Shown here: in pieces, positions 47,222 to 57,977 of the stretch
Layout of the letters: every line of letters starts with the position of its first letter
How positions within the stretch are numbered: position 1 is the first letter of the stretch
From: Anaerolineales bacterium
GTDB taxonomy: Bacteria; Chloroflexota; Anaerolineae; Anaerolineales; UBA4823
Assembly: GCA_046485135.1 (NCBI GenBank)
Contig: JAWOHN010000044.1
Location: 14,231-78,230, forward strand
DNA length: 64,000 bases
Reading direction: 5' to 3'
Program-made: the position numbers and the translations under genes
Notes under the pieces: model-generated
What the model was told of the DNA's origin: nothing
Seen by the model: only the letters and a program-made list of their open reading frames with translations
The model's database searches: none

Positions 47222-47518
47222 GTGCAAAACTGCTCAGTATGCAACGCTCAATCTCCAGATTCAGCCAGACACTGCAGCAACTGTCAGGCTGATTTGCGAG
47301 AATTCTCCACTACCAGCGTGGCGCTAAAACGTATCCAAAACAACTCGCGAGTTGAAAGCGTAATCCTATCTGTTGCGGCAGATGCCTGCCCTGCCTGCCA
47401 AAAATATCAGGGGGGGTATGCGAAAGATGAAGCGCCGGTTTTACCCATTCAGGGCTGTTCCCATCCGAACGGCTGTCGCTGTTTTTACCAGCCTGTATTA
47501 TCGGATATCTATCCCTGA
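47222..47518 (+). CDS. Zinc-ribbon protein with a Cys/His-rich C-terminus
   Basis: CSVCN...CSNCQ ribbon; CPACQ...GCSHPNGCRC. GTG start 3 nt after the upstream stop. Confidence 0.5.
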   Translation: MQNCSVCNAQSPDSARHCSNCQADLREFSTTSVALKRIQNNSRVESVILSVAADACPACQKYQGGYAKDEAPVLPIQGCSHPNGCRCFYQPVLSDIYP

Positions 47519-49200
47519 TCCAAACGCCCCTCAATTTCATTCAGAAGGTTCTTCGCCAAGGATAAGGCCTGTTCCTTGGCGTCAATTTTTCCAACAGCCT
47601 GGTTTTCACGGATAGCTTCGAGAAGTTGCCCTACAACCGGTCCAGGCTGGAGATTTAAATATTCCATCAGCTCATTCCCGTCAAGAATTGCAGGGGGAGA
47701 AACGCTCTCTTGCGCTGCTTCCCACCACGCTTGGAGCAGTGTGCGGACCACCTGCAAATGCCGGGTCCAATGCTCTAAGGATAGGCTTGGACCGTAGGTA
47801 GCCAGAACATCTGCCAGGGATAATAAACAGATATCCACGCCAGCCGGGCCTGTAGCCTTGAAGAAGCGATAAATTGCCCGCCGGCTAACCGGGTCGGAAC
47901 CCTGGGATAACAAAATAGGCCTGAGATGGTGGCGTACGATGGTTCCCACCCGATCAATTTCAACATTACTTAAGCGCAAACTGCGCGCCCGCTCGATAAG
48001 GAGAGACTCTCCCACCTGATCATGTTGGAAAAAGCGGATGCGGTTAGCATCATCTACCGCCCAAGTTTGGGGTTTGCCAATATCATGGTACAGAGCTGCC
48101 AGGAACAGCAACCCTCGTAAAGAGCGATCTTTGGTCAGTTCAGACTGGAAATGCTGATCGATCTGCTGACGGAAGCGGCCCAGGTTCATCACCAACGATC
48201 CCATAATCAAGTTGGCGGCAGATTCTTCGTTGTATGATATTTGTAACGCTTGAAGCACGTTGTCTAACTGCTGCATTACTCCCAAAGTATGTTCCCACAC
48301 ATCATAAACATGTGGAGGCGATTGGTCTACACCCTTCAAAGCAGTTAATTCCGGCAAAATGTGGGGGAAAACGCCGAGTAAGTCCAAAGCCCGGAAACAA
48401 GTATGGGGCTGAGGGCCAGATAAAATCTTGAACAGCTCATCTCGCAACCTTTCCGGAGAAACTGCCGGCAATGCGCTTACCCCAGCGCGCAGCAGGGCTA
48501 GAGTTTGCGGAAGAATATGAAAATTATAGGCAGCTGCCAGACGAATTGCGCGCAGAATGCGCAGAGGATCATCTGTGATAGAGGTCGGGGAACAAGCACG
48601 CAAGCGCCTGGCGTGCAAATCTGCCGCGCCTCCCAGTGGGTCAAACAGGGCCATATTCTGGCGCAGGTCTAAAGCCATAGCGTTAACGGTGAAGTCACGC
48701 CCCCGCAAATCACTTTCCAGATCAGGTCCCCGGTAGGCCGCAAAATCCAGGGCACGGCCAGAGTCTGCGTGTCCGGGGAGGATCAGGCGGGCGGTTTCTC
48801 TTTCTTGATCGAGAGGGAAATAGGCTGCTCCAATTTGGTTGGCAACCATACGGGCATATTTCAATACATCCCCAGGGAGCACAAAATCCAAATCATGCAT
48901 GCTGCGTCCAAGCAGCGCATCTCGCACCGCGCCGCCCACCAGATGCAAAGGGATATGGTCAGGTATCGCTTCTGCAACCTGTTCGATTAGTGCAGATGAG
49001 GCAATTGGTTTTGAAATGGGTACATAAACGATGCGCGGCGTTTCTTTTGGCCGGGTCGCTTTTGCTGCCCGCAGAGCCTGGTCAGGTGTGCCGCCCTGTC
49101 CAATGACACGCTCACCCAGCAGAGCGACCCAGCGACCCGCATACTGAGCCAGGTGATCTACCTCACCGGATGGGTCCAACGATTCAGGCAATCCGTTCAT
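47509..49200 (-). CDS. cca: CCA-adding tRNA nucleotidyltransferase / poly(A) polymerase family enzyme with an HD domain and an ~70-aa N-terminal extension
   Basis: LHLVGGAVRDALLGRSMHDLDFV head motif; RDFTVNA; HD motif LYHDIGKP. Confidence 0.8.
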   Translation of the reverse strand: MNGLPESLDPSGEVDHLAQYAGRWVALLGERVIGQGGTPDQALRAAKATRPKETPRIVYVPISKPIASSALIEQVAEAIPDHIPLHLVGGAVRDALLGRSMHDLDFVLPGDVLKYARMVANQIGAAYFPLDQERETARLILPGHADSGRALDFAAYRGPDLESDLRGRDFTVNAMALDLRQNMALFDPLGGAADLHARRLRACSPTSITDDPLRILRAIRLAAAYNFHILPQTLALLRAGVSALPAVSPERLRDELFKILSGPQPHTCFRALDLLGVFPHILPELTALKGVDQSPPHVYDVWEHTLGVMQQLDNVLQALQISYNEESAANLIMGSLVMNLGRFRQQIDQHFQSELTKDRSLRGLLFLAALYHDIGKPQTWAVDDANRIRFFQHDQVGESLLIERARSLRLSNVEIDRVGTIVRHHLRPILLSQGSDPVSRRAIYRFFKATGPAGVDICLLSLADVLATYGPSLSLEHWTRHLQVVRTLLQAWWEAAQESVSPPAILDGNELMEYLNLQPGPVVGQLLEAIRENQAVGKIDAKEQALSLAKNLLNEIEGRLDQG

Positions 49201-49826: not shown

Positions 49827-50399
49827 TCAATCCCGAGGCACCTCATGGTGCATCCTACAGCGAGCTTCATATAACTCAGATGCTCCCACTATAACGACCG
49901 GATCATTATAACGGGCAGGTCTTCCATTCACAATCCGCTGGGTGCGGGTGGCAGGCTCTCCACATACCATGCAGATGGCATGCAGTTTGTCAACAAACTC
50001 TGCCTGGGCCATTAATACTGGCATAGGTCCAAATGGCTCTCCGCGAAAATCGGTATCCAAACCGGCAACAATTACCCTGAGACCCTGATCTGCCAGGTTT
50101 TGAGCTATGCTGATGACCGTTTGATCAAAGAATTGTGCTTCGTCGATCGCAACAACGGTTGTGTCCAACTCAAGCAATTTCATGATTTCACCAGCACTCT
50201 GGATGGCATAGGCATCATAGTCACTGCCGGCATGAGAAGTTACCTTTTGGACAGTGTAGCGATTATCGATGGCCGGTTTAAAAACTTGCACTTTCTGCCG
50301 CGCAATTGTTGCTCGCCGCAAACGGCGGATCAGCTCATCCGTTTTTCCACTAAACATAGATCCGGTGATGACTTCTATAGAACCAGTATGGTGTTTCAT
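49827..50399 (-). CDS. tdk: Thymidine kinase
   Basis: P-loop [15 protein letters not shown], zinc motif CMVCG...C; SD AAGGAGA. Confidence 0.9.
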
Positions 50400-50430
50400 G
50401 CCTGAGGGATCTCCTTAGTAATAATGTGTA

Positions 50431-50460
50431 AACAGGCAGACGCAGGGGCGTCTGCCTGTT
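50431..50460 (-). terminator. Hairpin downstream of rpmE (probable terminator)
   Basis: aacaggcagacgc-aggg-gcgtctgcctgtt is a perfect 13-bp stem; only a weak U-tract follows on the minus strand. Confidence 0.55.
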
Positions 50461-50492
50461 AAGTTTACTCTAAGATCGACGGTTGGCAAGGA

Positions 50493-50966
50493 TCAGGACA
50501 CTATCTGGTCCAGACTTTGGGGCAGTTCGTATCCCAGCTGGCGCAAGCGTTTTTTCAAATCGGCCAGGGATTTGCGACCAAAGCCATCAATCGCCAGGAG
50601 TTTTTCTTCACCCTGTGCTAAAAGATCCAGGATTTGACCGGTGTTTAACACTTCACTCTTGACCAGGGCGTCTGTTGCACGGGTTCCAAGCTCAAGTTCC
50701 TGGACAGGGCGTTCAGGAGATACCCGGGCAGCAGATCTCGCTTCGGCTTCGTCCTTATATTGCTGACGAGCTTGCAGCTTGCGATAGAAGCGATCGACCT
50801 GCCCTTCAGTATCTACGATGCGCTGCTCGCCGGTGTAAAATGGGTGACATTTGTAGCAAACATCGGTGCGGATTTCTTTTTTGGTAGAACCGGTATGCCA
50901 GGTGTTACCGCACGCACAGACCACCAAAGCATCCGAAAAATAAGTGGGATGGATTTTTTCTTTCAT
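50493..50966 (-). CDS. rpmE: Ribosomal protein L31 (Zn-type) fused to an RNA polymerase alpha-subunit C-terminal-domain-like HhH domain
   Basis: aa 1-70 are canonical L31 (KIHPTY...CACG...CYKCHPFYTGEQR). aa ~85-148 (PVQELELGTRATDALVKSEVLNTGQILDLL...LLAIDGFGRKSLADLKKRLRQLGYEL) align with the E. coli RpoA CTD ([27 protein letters not shown]...[26 protein letters not shown]). Confidence 0.85.
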   Translation of the reverse strand: MKEKIHPTYFSDALVVCACGNTWHTGSTKKEIRTDVCYKCHPFYTGEQRIVDTEGQVDRFYRKLQARQQYKDEAEARSAARVSPERPVQELELGTRATDALVKSEVLNTGQILDLLAQGEEKLLAIDGFGRKSLADLKKRLRQLGYELPQSLDQIVS

Positions 50967-51036
50967 GTTTCACAAATCCTTTCAGGTGTGAAACGTAGAT
51001 AACGGAAAAGGTTTTTGTCCGTATTACGCTTTTAGA

Positions 51037-51303
51037 TTAATTTGCTTCTTCCACTGGGATAACGCTAACCATCTTGCGGTCATCTCGAATGGTTTCATAT
51101 ACGACGATCCCCTCGGCGACTGCAAAGAGGGTATCATCCCGGCCGACTTTGACATTGCGACCCGGTTTTATGCGAGTCCCGCGCTGGCGAACAAGGATAT
51201 TTCCAGAGAGAACATGTTGCCCGCCAAATACTTTAACACCCAGGCGCTGTGAGTTGCTATCTCGCCCATTGCGGCTGGAGCCGCCACCTTTTTTGTGAGC
51301 CAT
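51037..51303 (-). CDS. rpmA: Ribosomal protein L27
   Basis: [16 protein letters not shown]...LGVK; SD AGGAGGAAG. Confidence 0.95.
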
Positions 51304-51312
51304 TTCTTCCTC

Positions 51313-51642
51313 CTATTCCGTTTCCGCTTCCAACAGAATAGCGTCGATTTTCAAGCGTGTGTACTGTTGGCGATGACCCTTTTTCACGCGATAGCGGATT
51401 TTGGGTTTATATTTAAACACCACAATCTTGGGGCCTTTGATCTGTGAAATGACTGTGGCCTGAACCCGTGCCCCAGGAATCGTGGGGGTCCCAATGGTAA
51501 CATCATCTCCATCTGCAACCAGGAGCACCCGGTCCAGATCGATCTGGTCACCCACTTCAGATGGATAACGATCTACCTCAATCGTTCCACCTTCGACGGC
51601 TCGAAATTGCTTGCCGCCATCTTCAACAATAGCATATTTCAT
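51313..51642 (-). CDS. rplU: Ribosomal protein L21
   Basis: MKYAIVEDGGKQFR...VVFKYKPKIRYRVKKGHRQ. ATG 51642 is preceded by GGAGA (track start 51654 is TTG). Confidence 0.93.
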   Translation of the reverse strand: MKYAIVEDGGKQFRAVEGGTIEVDRYPSEVGDQIDLDRVLLVADGDDVTIGTPTIPGARVQATVISQIKGPKIVVFKYKPKIRYRVKKGHRQQYTRLKIDAILLEAETE

Positions 51643-51793
51643 CGATTTCTCCAATCTTCACTTCGCCGCACGCCCCGCGCCGGTGTAGATCAACCACATC
51701 GCCGAGCCAGTCCCTTGCTCCGGGCAGCGCCGGTGTGCGGGGAAGTTGGGGATACAGAATTTTGCCCCAGCGACTTGCTGCCGGGGCAGTGCG
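51643..51793 (-). promoter_or_regulatory. GC-rich structured 5' leader of rplU-rpmA-rpmE (candidate ribosomal-protein autoregulatory leader)
   Basis: About 150 nt lie between the predicted TSS and the ATG. Hairpin gcccc(ggc)agc-aagtc-gctggggc; long-range pairing ccgcac...gtgcgg; the 10-nt acaccggcgc occurs twice. Confidence 0.4.
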
Positions 51794-51799
51794 GGCTGT

Positions 51800-51828
51800 A
51801 TTATAACGGGGTTAGCGCCGGATGTCAA
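51800..51828 (-). promoter_or_regulatory. Consensus sigma-70 promoter for rplU
   Basis: The minus strand reads TTGACA-17 nt-TATAAT (ttgacatccggcgctaaccccgttataat), an exact match to both hexamers at optimal spacing. Confidence 0.75.
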
Positions 51829-51914
51829 ATTAATTCTTAGAAAAACCAGCAAATATTACCCCAAATGGTTAAAACTACACAAGTTCATAACCATATTAGT
51901 GAAAAACCTGTGCA

Positions 51915-53144
51915 CTAACCGCAGCCGCCGCCGCCGGGGCCGCGCTTATTCTTCAGCTCGATAACGGGTACATATTCAAACTGGTATTCATCGGGTCTGG
52001 GGTAAGCCGCCGGATATTTCGAACCCAAAGCGGCAGGGAACACAAAACGCAGTTGATCTGCTGGTGCGCCGGTCACCGGAAGGATTTCATGTTCTTCGCC
52101 GGTAAATACTGCCAACCAGTTGTTGATCCCTCCCTCCAAGATATAAATATTCGGAACACTTTCGGCAACCAGGATCTTCCATGCTTCGGTGGCAGCGACC
52201 TCATCGTTGCTCATGGTGATGAAGACAGTATTATCCGGTTCGAGAAGCAGTTCTTTGCTCATCTCTGCTAGATCTGCCAGGTCTACCCGTCTGGCATTCG
52301 AGATATGGAACAAGTTGTAATCGGCTTCAGCCCGGACATCAAGCAGCACGATGCGCAGCTTGCGGTCCTGCATGTTTTCCAACACTTCCCCTGGAGAGAC
52401 CTGGACAGCGCGTGCATTCAATAACAATTCCTTCTCTGGGGCGATCTTGGCCCAACGATCGGCGATGGTGGGTTGCCCAAGAACAGCTACAAACCCGGCC
52501 AGGACGATGAGACCTGCCGCTGCGGCAAAGCGTTGCCGCGGAGCACTTTTTGGGTCCTTTCCACCGAAGATTTTTTCCAATTGCTCGCCCCCCCAAAACA
52601 TAAACAAGGCCATGAACACAACTGCAATGACCACCACGCCGGTATCTAAACCCAACCATTCCGGAATTGTGAAGCGACCGAAGTAGGACGAATTCCAAAA
52701 TATTCTGTAGGTGTCTACAGTCTCACCGAACAGGAGGATCCCAAACAACGCTCCGAGCGTGAAAAACAGGCCATCCAACTTGCGCGTTGCCAGTGCGACC
52801 AGCGAGGTGCCCGGACAAAACCCGCCAATGATAAAACCCACACCCATGATCAACCCGCCCAGAATGCCAGGCCACAAATAGGTGGGGGGAACCCAGACCA
52901 GGTTATAGTCCAACAGACCAATTGCAGAGGCGCCAAACACCAACACCATAGCGACCACAATGGCGGTGAACATCACCTTTAAGACCGTCATGTCTTTGAA
53001 ATAGAATTGGGCTGCCAGTTTTGGAGAGTTGGCAAAACCAGATATCTCCAGAACAAACCCAAAGAAAAAGCCGATCATCATATAAACCGAGAATTCCCCG
53101 AATTTTGTAAACAAATCTGCAATGGGAAGAGGAAAAGGCGCCAT
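51915..53144 (-). CDS. YeeE/YedE-family sulfur-compound transporter half fused to a rhodanese-homology domain that lacks the catalytic Cys; C-terminal GGGGCG tail
   Basis: The N-terminal ~200 aa are hydrophobic and carry the GGFCPGTS loop. The C-terminal region LRIVLLDVRAEADYNLFHISNA...VFITMSNDEVAATEAWKIL...LEGGINNW is a rhodanese fold with M/S in place of the active-site Cys. The protein ends ...KRGPGGGGCG. Confidence 0.7.
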   Translation of the reverse strand: MAPFPLPIADLFTKFGEFSVYMMIGFFFGFVLEISGFANSPKLAAQFYFKDMTVLKVMFTAIVVAMVLVFGASAIGLLDYNLVWVPPTYLWPGILGGLIMGVGFIIGGFCPGTSLVALATRKLDGLFFTLGALFGILLFGETVDTYRIFWNSSYFGRFTIPEWLGLDTGVVVIAVVFMALFMFWGGEQLEKIFGGKDPKSAPRQRFAAAAGLIVLAGFVAVLGQPTIADRWAKIAPEKELLLNARAVQVSPGEVLENMQDRKLRIVLLDVRAEADYNLFHISNARRVDLADLAEMSKELLLEPDNTVFITMSNDEVAATEAWKILVAESVPNIYILEGGINNWLAVFTGEEHEILPVTGAPADQLRFVFPAALGSKYPAAYPRPDEYQFEYVPVIELKNKRGPGGGGCG

Positions 53145-53161
53145 GATCTATGTCTCCTGTA

Positions 53162-53740
53162 TTAATTCCACAAACGGCGTACAAAGTAAGCCAGGGCGTA
53201 CCCCCCAGCAAAGACTGCAAACATAAACGCCCAACTGCCCACCGAGAGCACGGCGCCTCCCGAAAGAGCCTGACCGGATGTGCAGCCTCTGGCCAGACGC
53301 GCTCCATAGCCCATGAAGCCGCCTCCAACAAAAGCCATCAACCAGCGCTTCCGAACGGTGATTTGCGGACCTTTGCCGGTCTCGACCTTTAGCCGGCCGT
53401 TAAGCCACCCGGAGGCAAACCCTCCCAGCAAGGTACCAACCGTTACCGGCACAACCCAGTTGTCTAAGGGGTTCGTATCGCCTCCTGCCATTGCCAACAG
53501 GAAAGGGGTACGATCGACATGCCCGGGTGCAACCAAATCTTCAAAATAAACCACGATCCGGTTCAGACCGCCCGAAGCGCCTAAGCCATTGCCAGTGAAA
53601 AAGAAGGCCAGGAACAGAACCACGCCTAAAAGGGCGCCCCCCAGGTATGGATTTACGTAGGGTCGGGCATCCCCCCGATCCAATACCCGCTTAAGAGAAA
53701 AAACACGTTTGCCAGAATTGGCTGAAGCAACAGTGCTCAT
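53162..53740 (-). CDS. YeeE/YedE-family sulfur-compound transporter half
   Basis: 192 aa and hydrophobic; conserved loop RLARGCTSGQALSG. The start overlaps the upstream stop (ATGA). Confidence 0.75.
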   Translation of the reverse strand: MSTVASANSGKRVFSLKRVLDRGDARPYVNPYLGGALLGVVLFLAFFFTGNGLGASGGLNRIVVYFEDLVAPGHVDRTPFLLAMAGGDTNPLDNWVVPVTVGTLLGGFASGWLNGRLKVETGKGPQITVRKRWLMAFVGGGFMGYGARLARGCTSGQALSGGAVLSVGSWAFMFAVFAGGYALAYFVRRLWN

Positions 53741-56517
53741 GATACAGCTTCCTCCTCAGTTAATTCAAATACTTCGACTTCATCCCAGCCAAGCATCATC
53801 GCCTGGATGCTGGCTAAAGGTGAATGACCTGTTGTAGTTAGATATACGTGCATGACCACAAAGGCTGCAAACAGCCAGGCAACCAAGGTATGGAATGGCG
53901 CCAGGAAAGGCAAGCCGCCCAACCAGTTGGTGATATTTGGCCAGCGCTGGGCTCCCCACATCAAAGCGCCGGTGATAATCTGCAGGGGCAACAAGATATT
54001 CAATATGGCAAAATAGGTCACTTGCTGCAATGGGTTAAGCTTCTTATCAGGAGTCTTCTCAAAGGGGTGTTTATCGCCTTTGAAAATTCCGCGCAGGTAA
54101 AAGCGCGCCTGGACAATGGCTTGATCGAAAAAGCCCAATGGACGGGGTAGGAACTGCTGGATCTCACCACTGACCAGGTGATAAAACAGGGACAGACCCG
54201 CGTTTATAACCAGCAGGGCAGCCAGGATATTGTGCACCAGGACCACGTAGCGGAAGCTAAACAGCCCAAAGGTATCTGGTTTATGGATAACAAGACCGGT
54301 AAAGATCAAACCCAGGATGACAAAGGTCTGCAACCAATGCCAAAAGCGCTCGTACACCGCATACATATAAACTTTCTTCAACTTAGGGGTATGACTTGGG
54401 CGGCGCATAGAGGTAAAGAAACGCAGCCCACCATGCAGAACAACGCCAAACATGGTCCCAAGAAATACCAACCCGCCAGCCAGGTCTACCCAAGCGACAC
54501 TGTCATGACCGAGTACGTAAAGGTTAGACTCCCGAGTCAGCGGCTGGTAGTAGAGTGCACCTGCCTCGGTTTGATACATCCTGCCATTGTTCAGGGTATT
54601 GGATGAGGCCACAAATTCGGGCAGCACATCGCCAGGTGTATAGGAAGATAACAAAATTGGCTGAGTCACCCGGGAGTTGGTCCCATGACAGGCCTGGCAA
54701 TCCCTGATAGCCCAATCACCACCGGCTACAGTGTGATTGATGCTATATGGTTGGACCTCACCGACAATACGGGGGTTCTCCAGGCCCAATTGGCTTAAGC
54801 GGGCCGTGATCAGATCTAACTTGGCCTGGTTGTCCAATACCAGCTCGCTTTCAGCTAAGCTTCCGTCTCCATTCTGGTCAAAGGCAGCCATAATTTCAGC
54901 CGGATAGCGGTCTCCTTCGAGCCAGGCAGAGGCCAGATCAACCTGGCGGACCGGTCGTTCAGGGTTTCCATAGACCCAAAACCAGGAGGTGATCAAGTTA
55001 AAGGGAGCGATCTTGCTGTTCCCATCGACATCGGTTTGGGGCATTAAGATGGGCTGGTAGCCTGTGACCAGAGAAGTCATTGGGTTTACGCCGCCTGGCT
55101 CCAATCCCCGGCATTCCGTATTCGGGGAGACGTCCGCGGTGACTACAGTCCAATCATATTGCTGAAAAGCCGCAGAATACATTTGCGGGATATGGCATGT
55201 CTCGCAGCTCACCACTTCCATGTGGCGATCTTGATAGGGCAACCAGGTATGGGTGCTCAGGGCGTCATGACAAGATTCGCAGCGCCGCATGGTGTTCTTC
55301 AAATCCGGGCTGACCGTGCTCTGAGCACTCTGGCCGCGGGCGAACTGGTGCAAAGGTTGGTATAAATATTCACCTAACTCTAACCGGCGCGGGTCAAAGA
55401 TCAGATGTTCGGGACGCGAGCTTTCCGCCTCTTGGAAGTAAACCGGGTTGTTCAGTGAGAAATGGCAATCGGTACAGTTCACGGCACGCTCGGCATGAAT
55501 ATCCCAGGAGCGGGTTAACTTGGCTTTGTCCGCCAGGTTCAAACCAGAATCCGACAGCCGCTGAGGCGAGATGATCTGCCCTGTGGTTTGCGTGCGCCAT
55601 TGCTCTGCGCTACAAGCGGATAAAATAACCGGCTCACGCAGAGTATCGTGGACCAGGCCGTGGCACTGCCCGCAATTATCGTTGGTGGGGTCCTGGATCT
55701 GCACGAACTCAGCGTCCAGCAAGCCATCGTCAGTAAACGCGTCGGCCCGGTATTGGTATGCGCCATTCACCCGGTCAACGATCCCACTTTGCAGCAAAGT
55801 GGCAGTATTCGCCCAACGGAAATTGCCCGCCTGAAGCTCATCGATGCGGGCCTGGTTATCGGGGGCAGACGTGTGGCAAAGGAAGCAATTCATCTCCACC
55901 GTTCCCGATCGTTCCCAATCCCAGGCTGTCAGCTGACCAGTGTGCGGGTCCTGCACATTCGTTTCAGGGTCACCCGAAGTCACCGGCAAATCCGATAGCG
56001 GGCGACCATCGCGAGCCGTGGCGGCTGGGCCGCCGCCGACATGGAATGATCCCAGCTGCCTGATCCAATCTGCAGTGCCCAGATCGATGCGCTCGTCTCC
56101 TTGGGGGGAAAGGTAACGGTAGATCAAGGGGTTCCATTTCCCAAATAACCCGGGGCTGCTGTCCCAAGATCGCCCACCGGTAACATCACCTGGTGCACTG
56201 AAATCTTCCAGACCTAAATCTGCATGATAGCTATGCTGCTCGATAAAAGCGGTATCATGGCATGCGCCACAGGTTTGTAGAGTGGATACCGCTTTCCCGC
56301 TGGTAAGCACATTTTCACCACTTTCATCCAGCAAGGCAAAGGTGGGATGAATGGGTGAGATCTGAGCGGGCCCGCTATCCAGCGATTTCGCAAATGCCAG
56401 GCTACCCGTTATGATAAAAATCGCTATCAGAGCTATGCTGAAGGCGAAAACCGTGTAGGCGCCCCGGGGACGAGATGATAAGAAGCAGGTCAACTTTGTC
56501 ATCATTCTTATGCTCAT
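53737..56517 (-). CDS. Heptaheme c-type cytochrome fused to a HydC/FdnI-type b-type cytochrome membrane domain (CbcL-like quinol oxidoreductase)
   Basis: N-terminal TM/signal anchor. Seven CxxCH motifs (CGACH, CFLCH, CGQCH, CTDCH, CESCH, CETCH, CQACH). C-terminal ~230 aa with 4-5 TM helices and a His pattern (YERFWHWLQTF..., VLVHNIL, FHTLVAW, VMHVY) typical of Ni/Fe-hydrogenase/FDH cytochrome b subunits. DQNGDGSLAESE is a Ca-loop-like motif. Confidence 0.75.
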   Translation of the reverse strand: MSIRMMTKLTCFLSSRPRGAYTVFAFSIALIAIFIITGSLAFAKSLDSGPAQISPIHPTFALLDESGENVLTSGKAVSTLQTCGACHDTAFIEQHSYHADLGLEDFSAPGDVTGGRSWDSSPGLFGKWNPLIYRYLSPQGDERIDLGTADWIRQLGSFHVGGGPAATARDGRPLSDLPVTSGDPETNVQDPHTGQLTAWDWERSGTVEMNCFLCHTSAPDNQARIDELQAGNFRWANTATLLQSGIVDRVNGAYQYRADAFTDDGLLDAEFVQIQDPTNDNCGQCHGLVHDTLREPVILSACSAEQWRTQTTGQIISPQRLSDSGLNLADKAKLTRSWDIHAERAVNCTDCHFSLNNPVYFQEAESSRPEHLIFDPRRLELGEYLYQPLHQFARGQSAQSTVSPDLKNTMRRCESCHDALSTHTWLPYQDRHMEVVSCETCHIPQMYSAAFQQYDWTVVTADVSPNTECRGLEPGGVNPMTSLVTGYQPILMPQTDVDGNSKIAPFNLITSWFWVYGNPERPVRQVDLASAWLEGDRYPAEIMAAFDQNGDGSLAESELVLDNQAKLDLITARLSQLGLENPRIVGEVQPYSINHTVAGGDWAIRDCQACHGTNSRVTQPILLSSYTPGDVLPEFVASSNTLNNGRMYQTEAGALYYQPLTRESNLYVLGHDSVAWVDLAGGLVFLGTMFGVVLHGGLRFFTSMRRPSHTPKLKKVYMYAVYERFWHWLQTFVILGLIFTGLVIHKPDTFGLFSFRYVVLVHNILAALLVINAGLSLFYHLVSGEIQQFLPRPLGFFDQAIVQARFYLRGIFKGDKHPFEKTPDKKLNPLQQVTYFAILNILLPLQIITGALMWGAQRWPNITNWLGGLPFLAPFHTLVAWLFAAFVVMHVYLTTTGHSPLASIQAMMLGWDEVEVFELTEEEAVS

Positions 56518-56522
56518 TACGT

Positions 56523-57977
56523 TTACCTGGGTGTATTGCTAAATCGACCGCCCCATTGCATTGGGTCTCCGGGATAGCCCAATGCCACCCAATCCAGGCG
56601 ACCTTCTGAGCTGTGGCAGGATTTGCATTGCAATGCGTTATCCGCCGGGGCAATCATATGGGATAGAGACCAATACATCTCTGTTTCAGCAAAACCATAT
56701 TCGCCGCTGTAAGCCATGTTGGTGGCCTCGGCTCCCGCGCGCAGAGCGATATCCCAATCAAATGTATCCCAAAAACCGCCCTCCCCGGCTGTCATGGGCT
56801 GCAACAAGTAGTTATAGACTGCATCGTACGGTTGCTTTCCACGATGTACCTTGAAAGGCCAGATTTTTGCTTCTGGGTCTGAAATATCACCATCTAACGT
56901 GTTGATCTGTGTTACCTGAGTGGGGTCGATGATATCCCCAAAGAGATAGCGATCTTTAGCGCCTTTGTACCAGTAATATTCCGGTGTAAAACCCGATTCA
57001 TACACAAAACTTCCCTTGACCTTTAGGTAAGCGTGGGGATCTTCTGGCAAGTCTTGCCCGGCTGTGGACCAGTCCCAATACATCTTGGTGGGTTCAATGA
57101 CTGCCCCAGTTGGGACATGACAGGTCTGGCATGCAACGGCATTGGCGTGCGCATTAATACGCGCATCACTGTGCAAGTTCTCTGAATGGCAGTCTGAACA
57201 GGCAACCTGGTTTTCGCGATCCAGGGAGACGGAGATGGCCCGGCCGCGGATATCATGATCCTGCGCCTGGTGACAATCGATGCATTGGAAATCATGACCG
57301 CCCATATGGATATCCAGGCTGGCAGAGGGGAAATACAGGGTCTGGTCCATGTCACCGTGCTTGACCGCGTTTCCACCGCCACCATTGAAATGGCAAGAAC
57401 CGCAATTTTCCCGGGTAGGTGAACCAACACTTTGGGCAGAGGCCAGCAGGTCCACGCCCTCAACCGGAAGGCCACCGCGTCCCTTGACATATCCGCCAGA
57501 GAGATCGTGGCACACCAGGCAGTCAACATTTTCCTGCACAGAAAAGTCAAAGTCCGCATCGAACCATCCATAACCGGCATGGCAGGAGGTGCAAGAAGGC
57601 CAGTTCGACTGGATGCCCAGACAAAAATTGTTCAGCGAGTTCTTCTTGCCGATGGTGACCGGTTCATCTCTTCCTTCCAACTGGTAAGGCTTGCTTTCCC
57701 AGGTCCAATGCACCGTCTGCATGAGATCCTGCGCAGCGTCAGGATGGCACTCCAGGCAGGCCCGGGTTACATCAGAGCCTGTTTCAAACGGTCCTGCAAG
57801 CAAATCCGTATGATTTGTATGGGGAGATTTTTTGGGGACAACCGCCCAAGGGTCATCGGCTGCCCGAGTATCTTTCGGAATTAACAAGATCACCGGCACA
57901 GCAATACTCAGCAGGGTAAAGACCAGTCCAAAGATCCAGATATACTTTGCACTTCTGATTTTGTCGGCAATGCGCAT
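56523..57977 (-). CDS. Octaheme c-type cytochrome, tetrathionate reductase (Otr)-family-like, N-terminally membrane-anchored
   Basis: Eight CxxCH motifs (CLECH, CTSCH, CLVCH, CGSCH, CIDCH, CSDCH, CQTCH, CKSCH). 484 aa with one N-terminal TM helix. Blocks HWTWE, SCHAGYGW and VDCLVCHD match my recollection of the Otr family. No CxxCK and no CX15CH. Confidence 0.65.
   Translation of the reverse strand: MRIADKIRSAKYIWIFGLVFTLLSIAVPVILLIPKDTRAADDPWAVVPKKSPHTNHTDLLAGPFETGSDVTRACLECHPDAAQDLMQTVHWTWESKPYQLEGRDEPVTIGKKNSLNNFCLGIQSNWPSCTSCHAGYGWFDADFDFSVQENVDCLVCHDLSGGYVKGRGGLPVEGVDLLASAQSVGSPTRENCGSCHFNGGGGNAVKHGDMDQTLYFPSASLDIHMGGHDFQCIDCHQAQDHDIRGRAISVSLDRENQVACSDCHSENLHSDARINAHANAVACQTCHVPTGAVIEPTKMYWDWSTAGQDLPEDPHAYLKVKGSFVYESGFTPEYYWYKGAKDRYLFGDIIDPTQVTQINTLDGDISDPEAKIWPFKVHRGKQPYDAVYNYLLQPMTAGEGGFWDTFDWDIALRAGAEATNMAYSGEYGFAETEMYWSLSHMIAPADNALQCKSCHSSEGRLDWVALGYPGDPMQWGGRFSNTPR

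Follow-up and report, generated by a model that had tools for sequence, protein, structure and literature searches.

The gene for ribosomal protein bL31 (rpmE) considered here lies in a stretch of 64,000 nucleotides (nt) from an Anaerolineales genome (contig JAWOHN010000044.1, positions 14,231 to 78,230; hereafter the window), and it encodes a complete zinc-type bL31 fused to a true homologue of the C-terminal domain of the RNA polymerase (RNAP) alpha subunit (alpha-CTD). Sequence comparisons indicate that this fusion is real, old, fixed across the class Anaerolineae and under purifying selection. bL31 forms the protein link of bridges B1b/B1c and travels with the 30S head, and the alpha-CTD is the classic interaction module that RNAP carries on a tether. 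A class-wide, selected fusion of the two is thereby a natural experiment on an RNAP-type module mounted on the ribosome. A full-text literature search aimed at an L31/alpha-CTD fusion returned no paper describing one, and databases already annotate both domains automatically on some entries.

Architecture and distribution of the bL31 fusion

The fusion is read from the minus strand as a single open reading frame (ORF) of 157 amino acids (aa) plus stop, with an ATG start and an AGGA motif upstream of it. Its parts are the following.

50493..50966, minus strand: rpmE fusion gene, bL31 followed by a helical spacer and an alpha-CTD-derived domain (ORF, Pfam, NCBIfam)
50775..50966, minus strand: bL31 domain, residues 1-64, zinc-ribbon type A (Pfam; solved bL31 chains)
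50721..50774, minus strand: spacer, residues 65-82, rich in K, A, R, E and Q, without Pro and Gly (AlphaFold helix)
50520..50720, minus strand: alpha-CTD-derived domain with two helix-hairpin-helix (HhH) motifs, (HhH)2, residues 83-149 (Pfam, Foldseek, residue table below)
50496..50519, minus strand: variable C-terminal tail, residues 150-157 (mean pairwise identity 0.18, length varies)

The N-terminal part matches the Pfam family Ribosomal_L31 (PF01197) over residues 1-64 with 95.1 bits against a cut-off of 27 (E 2.9e-27), covering positions 1-64 of the 65 in the profile, and the NCBIfam L31 equivalog models span residues 1-69 (NF000612, 94.5 vs 70; TIGR00105, 83.6 vs 38.35). The zinc motif CxC...CxxC is formed by C17, C19, C37 and C40, all four invariant in 111 diverse members of the family. 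The segment that binds the 30S head, G55-Q-V-D-R-F-Y-R-K63-L64, aligns with solved bL31 chains through residue 64, with K63 opposite E. coli R63, and its V57, D58, R59, F60 and L64 are invariant in the same 111 members. Profile, zinc motif and head-binding segment thus identify the N-terminal part, at the level of sequence, as a type A bL31. As in E. coli RpmE and T. thermophilus L31, residues 1-64 align one for one, including the four zinc cysteines and the C-terminal DRF-x-K/R segment that forms bridges B1b/B1c on the 30S head; unlike these proteins, the fusion adds about 90 residues.

The C-terminal part matches RNA_pol_A_CTD (PF03118) at residues 83-142 with 36.0 bits against a gathering cut-off of 23.8 (E 5.6e-9; profile positions 10-66 of 67). 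NCBIfam rpoA models also match in part, exclusively with the C-terminal region of rpoA. Pfam finds no match to RNA_pol_L or RNA_pol_A_bac in the protein, and the domain sits on bL31 instead. The initial annotation, made by a model from the sequence alone, had proposed a complete zinc-type L31 followed, behind a charged spacer, by an alpha-CTD homologue at residues 85-148 (nt 50523-50714, a correct conversion), and both halves of this proposal hold. The unrelated HhH family that it had named as one way of being wrong can be rejected, as HHH_5 (PF14520) reaches 14.1 bits against a cut-off of 27, below RNA_pol_A_CTD, and the fold search agrees. The domain therefore has the alpha-CTD profile match and, as predicted, the (HhH)2 fold; it has neither the full 265 determinant described below nor attachment to an alpha N-terminal domain (NTD).

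Among the best 120 clusters from a collection of 5.8 billion proteins, all are 154-163 aa long, all carry both Pfam domains and, wherever a name is given, it is that of an L31 of Chloroflexota. One of them (P0001) contains a protein identical to ours from public metagenomes. In the contigs of the GTDB, taken at one genome per species, we found the fusion uninterrupted in 51 species-level genomes (152-168 aa, 47-85% identity), with a 52nd copy cut by the contig end. Since these 120 clusters and 51 genomes share an ORF with both domains, a chance origin is untenable. No stop codon separates the two parts in any of the 51 genome-derived sequences. The other finding that the initial annotation had named as a refutation, a stop between the parts in relatives, is thus absent, in line with its statement that there is no frameshift signature, and rplU and rpmA lie upstream of the fusion in 51 of the 51 loci. 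The genomes are labelled Anaerolineales, Aggregatilineales, Anaerolinea, Phototrophicaceae or simply Chloroflexota, apart from three labelled Bacteroidota, Methylococcales and Pleurocapsa. These last are contigs of 5-17 kb with the same gene order, and they are probably mis-binned. In Dehalococcoidia, L31 is plain (68-77 aa).

The domain is under constraint. Indeed, in 18 close pairs analysed by the Nei-Gojobori method, the median ratio of nonsynonymous to synonymous substitution rates (dN/dS) was 0.028 for L31, 0.083 for the spacer and 0.077 for the CTD, the latter ranging from 0.03 to 0.31 among pairs. The family also extends beyond the members that profiles readily detect. A search seeded with the most divergent member uncovered a second large branch of L31s of 153-165 aa. 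When six database members of this branch were rescanned, RNA_pol_A_CTD was the best or co-best match in five, at 17.6-24.8 bits and mostly below the cut-off. Only about a quarter of the 120 clusters listed around the divergent member (P0402-P0521) carry a precomputed alpha-CTD domain, so that counts of this architecture based on Pfam miss many members.

Origin of the domain and remodelling of its surface

Structure prediction agrees with the profiles. AlphaFold was run twice, with 39 and then 111 sequences, and both models show the beta-strands of L31, one long helix, a short S-P-E-R-P break and a compact helical domain, the last with a predicted local distance difference test score (pLDDT) of 81-85. 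In a Foldseek search, the N-terminal part of the model matched ribosome-bound bL31 and the C-terminal part matched solved alpha-CTDs from E. coli, Streptomyces, Synechococcus and Caulobacter (3n97, 3k4g, 1lb2, 7vpd and 9dvt among others), with TM scores of 0.64-0.87, root-mean-square deviations of 1.5-3.0 A and about 33% identity. In the comparison with solved chains, the C-terminal domain of the query is matched by RpoA chains only and by no bL31 among the 60 best listed.

The domain most closely resembles the alpha-CTD of its own phylum. A BLASTP alignment with an Anaerolineae RpoA runs without gaps over 68 residues (38% identity, 71% positives, E 5e-16) and contains the shared blocks quoted in the initial annotation, and identity to the CTD of Anaerolineae RpoA reaches 56%. 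Relative to E. coli, the fusion domain and the Chloroflexota RpoA CTD have in common a 3-residue insertion with a conserved glycine (G119 in our protein). Against a profile built from 52 fusion domains (the L31-CTD profile), RpoAs labelled Anaerolineae reach 62-67 bits and that of E. coli 26 bits. When the C-terminal 88 residues were compared with 1.84 billion representative sequences, the closest non-fusion proteins included RpoAs with two tandem CTDs and other multi-CTD proteins. The gapless alignment, the shared insertion, the profile scores and the identity of up to 56% lead us to infer that the domain was copied from, and descends from, a CTD of the Chloroflexota RpoA type. The two also share the (HhH)2 fold, the RP-x-x-EL-x-L entry and G-[YF] exit motifs and mounting on a linker.

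We considered that RpoA might have lost its CTD to L31. This can be rejected at the level of the class only: all 120 Chloroflexota RpoA matches listed keep PF03118, including two from named Anaerolineae whose genes stand in the usual S4-rpoA context (L17 comes next in L161, L163 and L164). No rpoA was found within the L31 loci, and the 64-kb window contains neither an rpoA nor a second L31.

Seventeen of the 120 Chloroflexota RpoAs (382-424 aa; for example P0283, P0284 and P0291) have two tandem alpha-CTDs. The second of these is degenerate, with K298 and S299 often lost and position 294 often Gly. More generally, the alpha-CTD-like domain is a promiscuous module (P0127, P0141, P0163, P0167, P0184, P0188), found for instance in 11 repeats in a 1031-aa protein, together with sigma-70 region 4, and in a family of 440-490 aa that combines TPR with two CTDs; a 330-aa TPR relative (P0182 cluster) is labelled Planctomycetota.

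To compare surfaces, we aligned the 52 fusion domains with 119 first CTDs of Chloroflexota RpoA. Positions are numbered on the E. coli RpoA sequence, which is 329 aa long and in which R265 falls in the expected place; on this scale R96 of the fusion corresponds to R265, G128-F-G-R-K132 to 294-298, and K138, K139 and R142 to 304, 305 and 308. In E. coli RpoA, the 265 determinant, which recognises UP-element DNA, comprises R265, N268, C269, G296, K298 and S299, plus N294. The states at the informative positions are as follows.

R265: RpoA CTD 100%; fusion domain 96%
G296: RpoA CTD 99%; fusion domain 92%
K298: RpoA CTD 99%; fusion domain 92%
E258: RpoA CTD 100%; fusion domain variable
N268: RpoA CTD 100%; fusion domain E, D or A
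C269: RpoA CTD 100%; fusion domain mostly A
K271, R272, R293: RpoA CTD 99-100%; fusion domain variable
N294: RpoA CTD 99%; fusion domain G in 100%
S299: RpoA CTD 99%; fusion domain 48%
302: RpoA CTD E in 99%; fusion domain D in 92%
304: RpoA CTD not basic; fusion domain K in 96%
305: RpoA CTD not basic; fusion domain K in 92%
308: RpoA CTD R in 48%; fusion domain R in 88%

Compared with the alpha-CTD of RpoA, the fusion domain has thus lost N268, C269, K271/R272, R293, N294 and S299 and gained K304, K305 and R308; the last three and G294 are conserved in the fusion only. Across the 111 diverse members G128, K132, D136, K138 and R142 are invariant. By this pattern the domain has been freed from the constraints of RpoA, including most of the UP-element determinant, and is now held by new ones, namely an invariant G294, K298, D302, K304 and R308, plus R265, R297 and K305. 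Helical periodicity, rather than model coordinates, would place 297/304/308 and 298/305 as adjacent stripes on helix 4, beside the second hairpin and R265.

The two domains also differ in what carries them. The fusion domain sits on a ribosomal protein and that of RpoA on the alpha NTD. The RpoA tether is flexible, unlike the linker of the fusion, which is predicted to be a rigid helix. This helix covers residues 58-81 in the model from 39 sequences and 53-81 in that from 111 sequences (pLDDT 79-90), and it is followed by the proline-containing segment S83-P84-E85-R86-P87, which in the models can be read as a hinge. The spacer, in which K, A, R, E and Q abound, lacks both Pro and Gly in 51 of the 52 species.

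Position on the ribosome and possible partners

The N-terminal domain of bL31 binds 5S rRNA and uL5, and its C-terminal part lies on the 30S head at uS13, uS14, uS19 and, through R63, h42, and follows the movements of the head as one rigid body; without its last seven residues, subunit association is weakened (PMC7297116, PMC7530986). The segment with the head-binding role corresponds to about residues 55-66 in E. coli, R63 included (PMC7297116). As this segment is kept one for one in the fusion, with K63 for R63, the helix and the domain behind it should project from the head near the central protuberance.

The reading that we favour, and that we advance tentatively, sees in the domain an (HhH)2 module, re-tooled and carried by a stalk on the 30S head, which grips a polyanion, most probably an RNA backbone. 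The predicted helix would act as a stalk of about 4 nm that holds the domain out, a few nanometres away from where the 30S head meets the central protuberance. The basic stripe remodelled on the second hairpin and helix 4 would then grip a polyanionic ligand, for which the rRNA of the head or the central protuberance, or else the mRNA, would be the most probable candidates. The domain would in this way serve as an accessory module resident on the ribosome, altering bridge B1 and the way the head behaves, and it would not read UP-like DNA in the manner of RpoA. If it docks on rRNA, it would be a clear case of a ribosomal protein recruiting a domain of the transcription machinery and re-tooling its surface.

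Four observations weigh against this reading. First, 35 residues separate the DRF motif from the equivalent of R265 in all but 4 of the 52 species (range 33-37), at a spacer identity of only 33%, but the linker of RpoA is also near-constant in the Chloroflexota set (56-60 residues); the constant length therefore proves little alone, and we discarded it as proof of a molecular ruler. The helical prediction is the stronger point for the spacer. Second, the net charge of the fusion domain is near neutral (-6 to +2), so that the domain is no typical basic rRNA-binding extension. Third, the basic stripe would equally fit an acidic protein partner such as NusA. Fourth, a sub-branch of the family (L040, L044, L046, L049 and many of the P0402-P0521 clusters) has GINPK in place of the GFGRK hairpin and a raised dN/dS of 0.12-0.31, a drift that is unexpected for a universal rRNA contact.

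An acidic partner leads to the second explanation, which is possible if rather doubtful: the L31-borne (HhH)2 domain could be a coupling arm that links the 30S head to the elongating polymerase, its partner being RNAP itself or, on NusA, either the alpha-CTD-like domain or the long acidic tail. Such an arrangement would resemble the binding of the alpha-CTD by E. coli NusA-AR2, for which a dissociation constant below 5 uM has been reported, the AR domains being described as a gamma-proteobacterial feature (PMC4937328). The fusion domain appears to come from RNAP, in expressome models the alpha-CTDs and NusA sit between RNAP and the 30S subunit, and the conserved basic stripe would fit an acidic partner. 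Moreover, one fusion-bearing contig, L011, also holds the start of nusA (L011:5510-6034). The NusAs related to it are 620-680 aa long and 72-92% identical to it over their first 176 residues, and 47 of the 65 complete ones carry, at about residues 435-503, an alpha-CTD-like domain. With the L31-CTD profile this domain scores up to 40 bits; it equals the L31 domain in length, 3-residue insertion included, and precedes an acidic region of about 110 residues. A link to NusA or RNAP is somewhat more plausible because NusAs so close to that of L011 carry a related (HhH)2 domain. Against the coupling arm, none of 80 nusA metagenome loci has a fusion within 10 kb, and we therefore rejected a physical linkage of the two genes, which share contig L011 only. 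In addition, the surface residues invariant in RpoA are not kept in the fusion, so that partners shared with RpoA are not implied.

The likeness between the domains is also graded. The NusA C-terminal (HhH)2 domains, both AR1/AR2 of E. coli and those of the Anaerolineae type, have the same superfold as the fusion domain, and those of the Anaerolineae type further share its length, the G-x-G-x-K hairpin and Gly at 294. They are nevertheless more distant than RpoA (8-40 bits with the L31-CTD profile vs 62-67), and the AR domains act as acidic partners to the alpha-CTD and are no modules of ribosomal proteins. Pfam gives one RNA_pol_A_CTD match among the L011-like NusAs, below threshold (21.6 bits).

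The most specific version of this idea, a hard-wired coupling independent of NusG in which the bL31 domain pairs with the NusA domain or acidic tail, or with the RpoA CTD, and docks the 30S head to the elongation complex, seems to us unlikely. NusG, with its NTD on RNAP and its KOW domain on uS10, is similar by analogy only, in that of two modules one end is on the 30S head and the other could reach the polymerase; the fusion has no homology to NusG, and bridging by the L31-CTD would be a putative role. Were this coupling to operate, one paralogous module would be present on RNAP, NusA and the ribosome of the same lineage, and a contact with NusA or RNAP would provide a genetically encoded, directly testable transcription-translation coupling in a little-studied phylum. 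Whether it is rRNA or the transcription machinery that the domain contacts, extra density is predicted on Anaerolineae ribosomes.

The L011-like NusAs (L081-L160; for example L143:4654-6645 and L081:1385-3328) have the layout NTD-S1-KH-KH, a helical stretch and the alpha-CTD-like (HhH)2 domain. Beyond it come the acidic region, rich in E, A, V and P, then a run of Lys residues and, at the C-terminus, a conserved motif ...EYDPD...KKxKRG..W. P0161, a NusA of 758 aa, has the alpha-CTD-like domain twice.

Tethering of ribosomes to DNA, which the initial annotation had raised as a possibility beside RNAP or NusA-type factors, is very improbable by minor-groove, UP-element-like binding in the manner of RpoA. 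R265, G296 and K298 are kept, and the fold of the predicted model matches alpha-CTD-DNA complexes such as 3n97, 1lb2 and 9zum. However, N268, C269, N294 and S299 are replaced or free to vary, and K271/R272 with them, at positions that are 99-100% conserved in Chloroflexota RpoA, and the net charge of the domain is near zero. The DNA-reading claim is weakened accordingly.

It is just as improbable that the extra domain acts off the ribosome, by extending an autogenous repression of its own mRNA or by being released as a separate protein. In gamma-proteobacteria, bL31 represses the translation of its own mRNA (PMC10931766, PMC7297116), and one NCBI record (P0274, MFO7623144.1), named "alpha C-terminal domain-containing protein", annotates only the C-terminal half of the same gene as a protein of 94 aa. 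But the start of P0274 is a Leu codon (CTG) in the window and looks like a choice of start site; the record probably reflects a start-site or frameshift annotation problem in that metagenome-assembled genome. There is neither a stop codon nor a conserved internal Met between the halves in the 51 genome-derived sequences, and strict linkage together with the predicted helical stalk favours action in cis on the ribosome. A regulatory RNA or leader around the operon was also sought and rejected: Rfam gave no match at E <= 1 in 50300-52000, which includes the 5' untranslated region of rplU, and at the gathering score there was none anywhere in the window.

Finally, an assembly or frameshift artefact, or a decaying appendage without function, can be set aside for practical purposes, as the same ORF is present in 51 independent species-level genomes and hundreds of metagenome clusters and the dN/dS of its CTD has a median of about 0.08.

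Genomic setting and other extended bL31 proteins

On the minus strand the gene order is rplU, rpmA, the fusion, the thymidine kinase gene tdk, a phosphoribosyltransferase gene and the gene of a CCA-adding enzyme. Pfam matches of the neighbours and an order kept in all 51 loci bear out the rplU-rpmA-rpmE context that had been described as normal. The elements around the fusion are these.

51037..51303, minus strand: rpmA (bL27), directly upstream of the fusion (Pfam Ribosomal_L27, 125 bits)
51313..51654, minus strand: rplU (bL21), first gene of the cluster (Pfam Ribosomal_L21p, 122 bits)
51800..51828, minus strand: sigma-70-type promoter match TTGACA-17-TATAAT, about 145 nt upstream of rplU (consensus scan 12/12, a pattern match only)
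50431..50460, minus strand: 13-bp GC-rich hairpin with a 4-nt loop, 33 nt past the rpmE stop (RNA fold)

The 81-nt stretch with this hairpin has a minimum free energy of -28 kcal/mol (z -7.2), and none of 200 shuffled sequences is as stable. A strict terminator scan makes no call on the hairpin at 50431-50460, whose U-tract is weak; it is probably a terminator or a stabiliser between rpmE and tdk.

Other bL31 proteins are extended at the same C-terminal point. Enlarged bL31 has been mentioned in bacteria of the candidate phyla radiation (CPR) (PMC9297842). The CPR proteins (Microgenomates, Roizmanbacteria; loci L057, L061, L063, L067, L070, L071, L074-L078 and L080) are 97-101 aa long, with a Lys-rich extension that ends in a conserved K-[ST]-L-[RK]-E-L-L. 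Two relatives, labelled uncultured Anaerolineae (L053:6001-6297) and Thermoflexales (L054:6001-6318), have L31s of 98-105 aa with an Arg/Lys-rich tail and without an alpha-CTD, which represent either a precursor state or a loss. Unlike the fusion, the CPR, Thermoflexales and Anaerolineae-labelled forms all have short basic tails without a folded domain.

Upstream on the minus strand (53737-57977 and 51915-53740) lie genes for cytochromes and sulphur-transport proteins. A 926-aa protein combines a multihaem cytochrome region of MtrC/MtrF type, at a sub-threshold Pfam score, with a cytochrome b561-type membrane domain. The others are a multihaem cytochrome c of 484 aa and two YeeE/YedE-type sulphur-transport proteins, one of them fused to a rhodanese. 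On the other side of the fusion, the CCA-adding enzyme, of the poly(A)-polymerase family (47509-49200, minus strand), carries a DUF5678 domain at its N-terminus.

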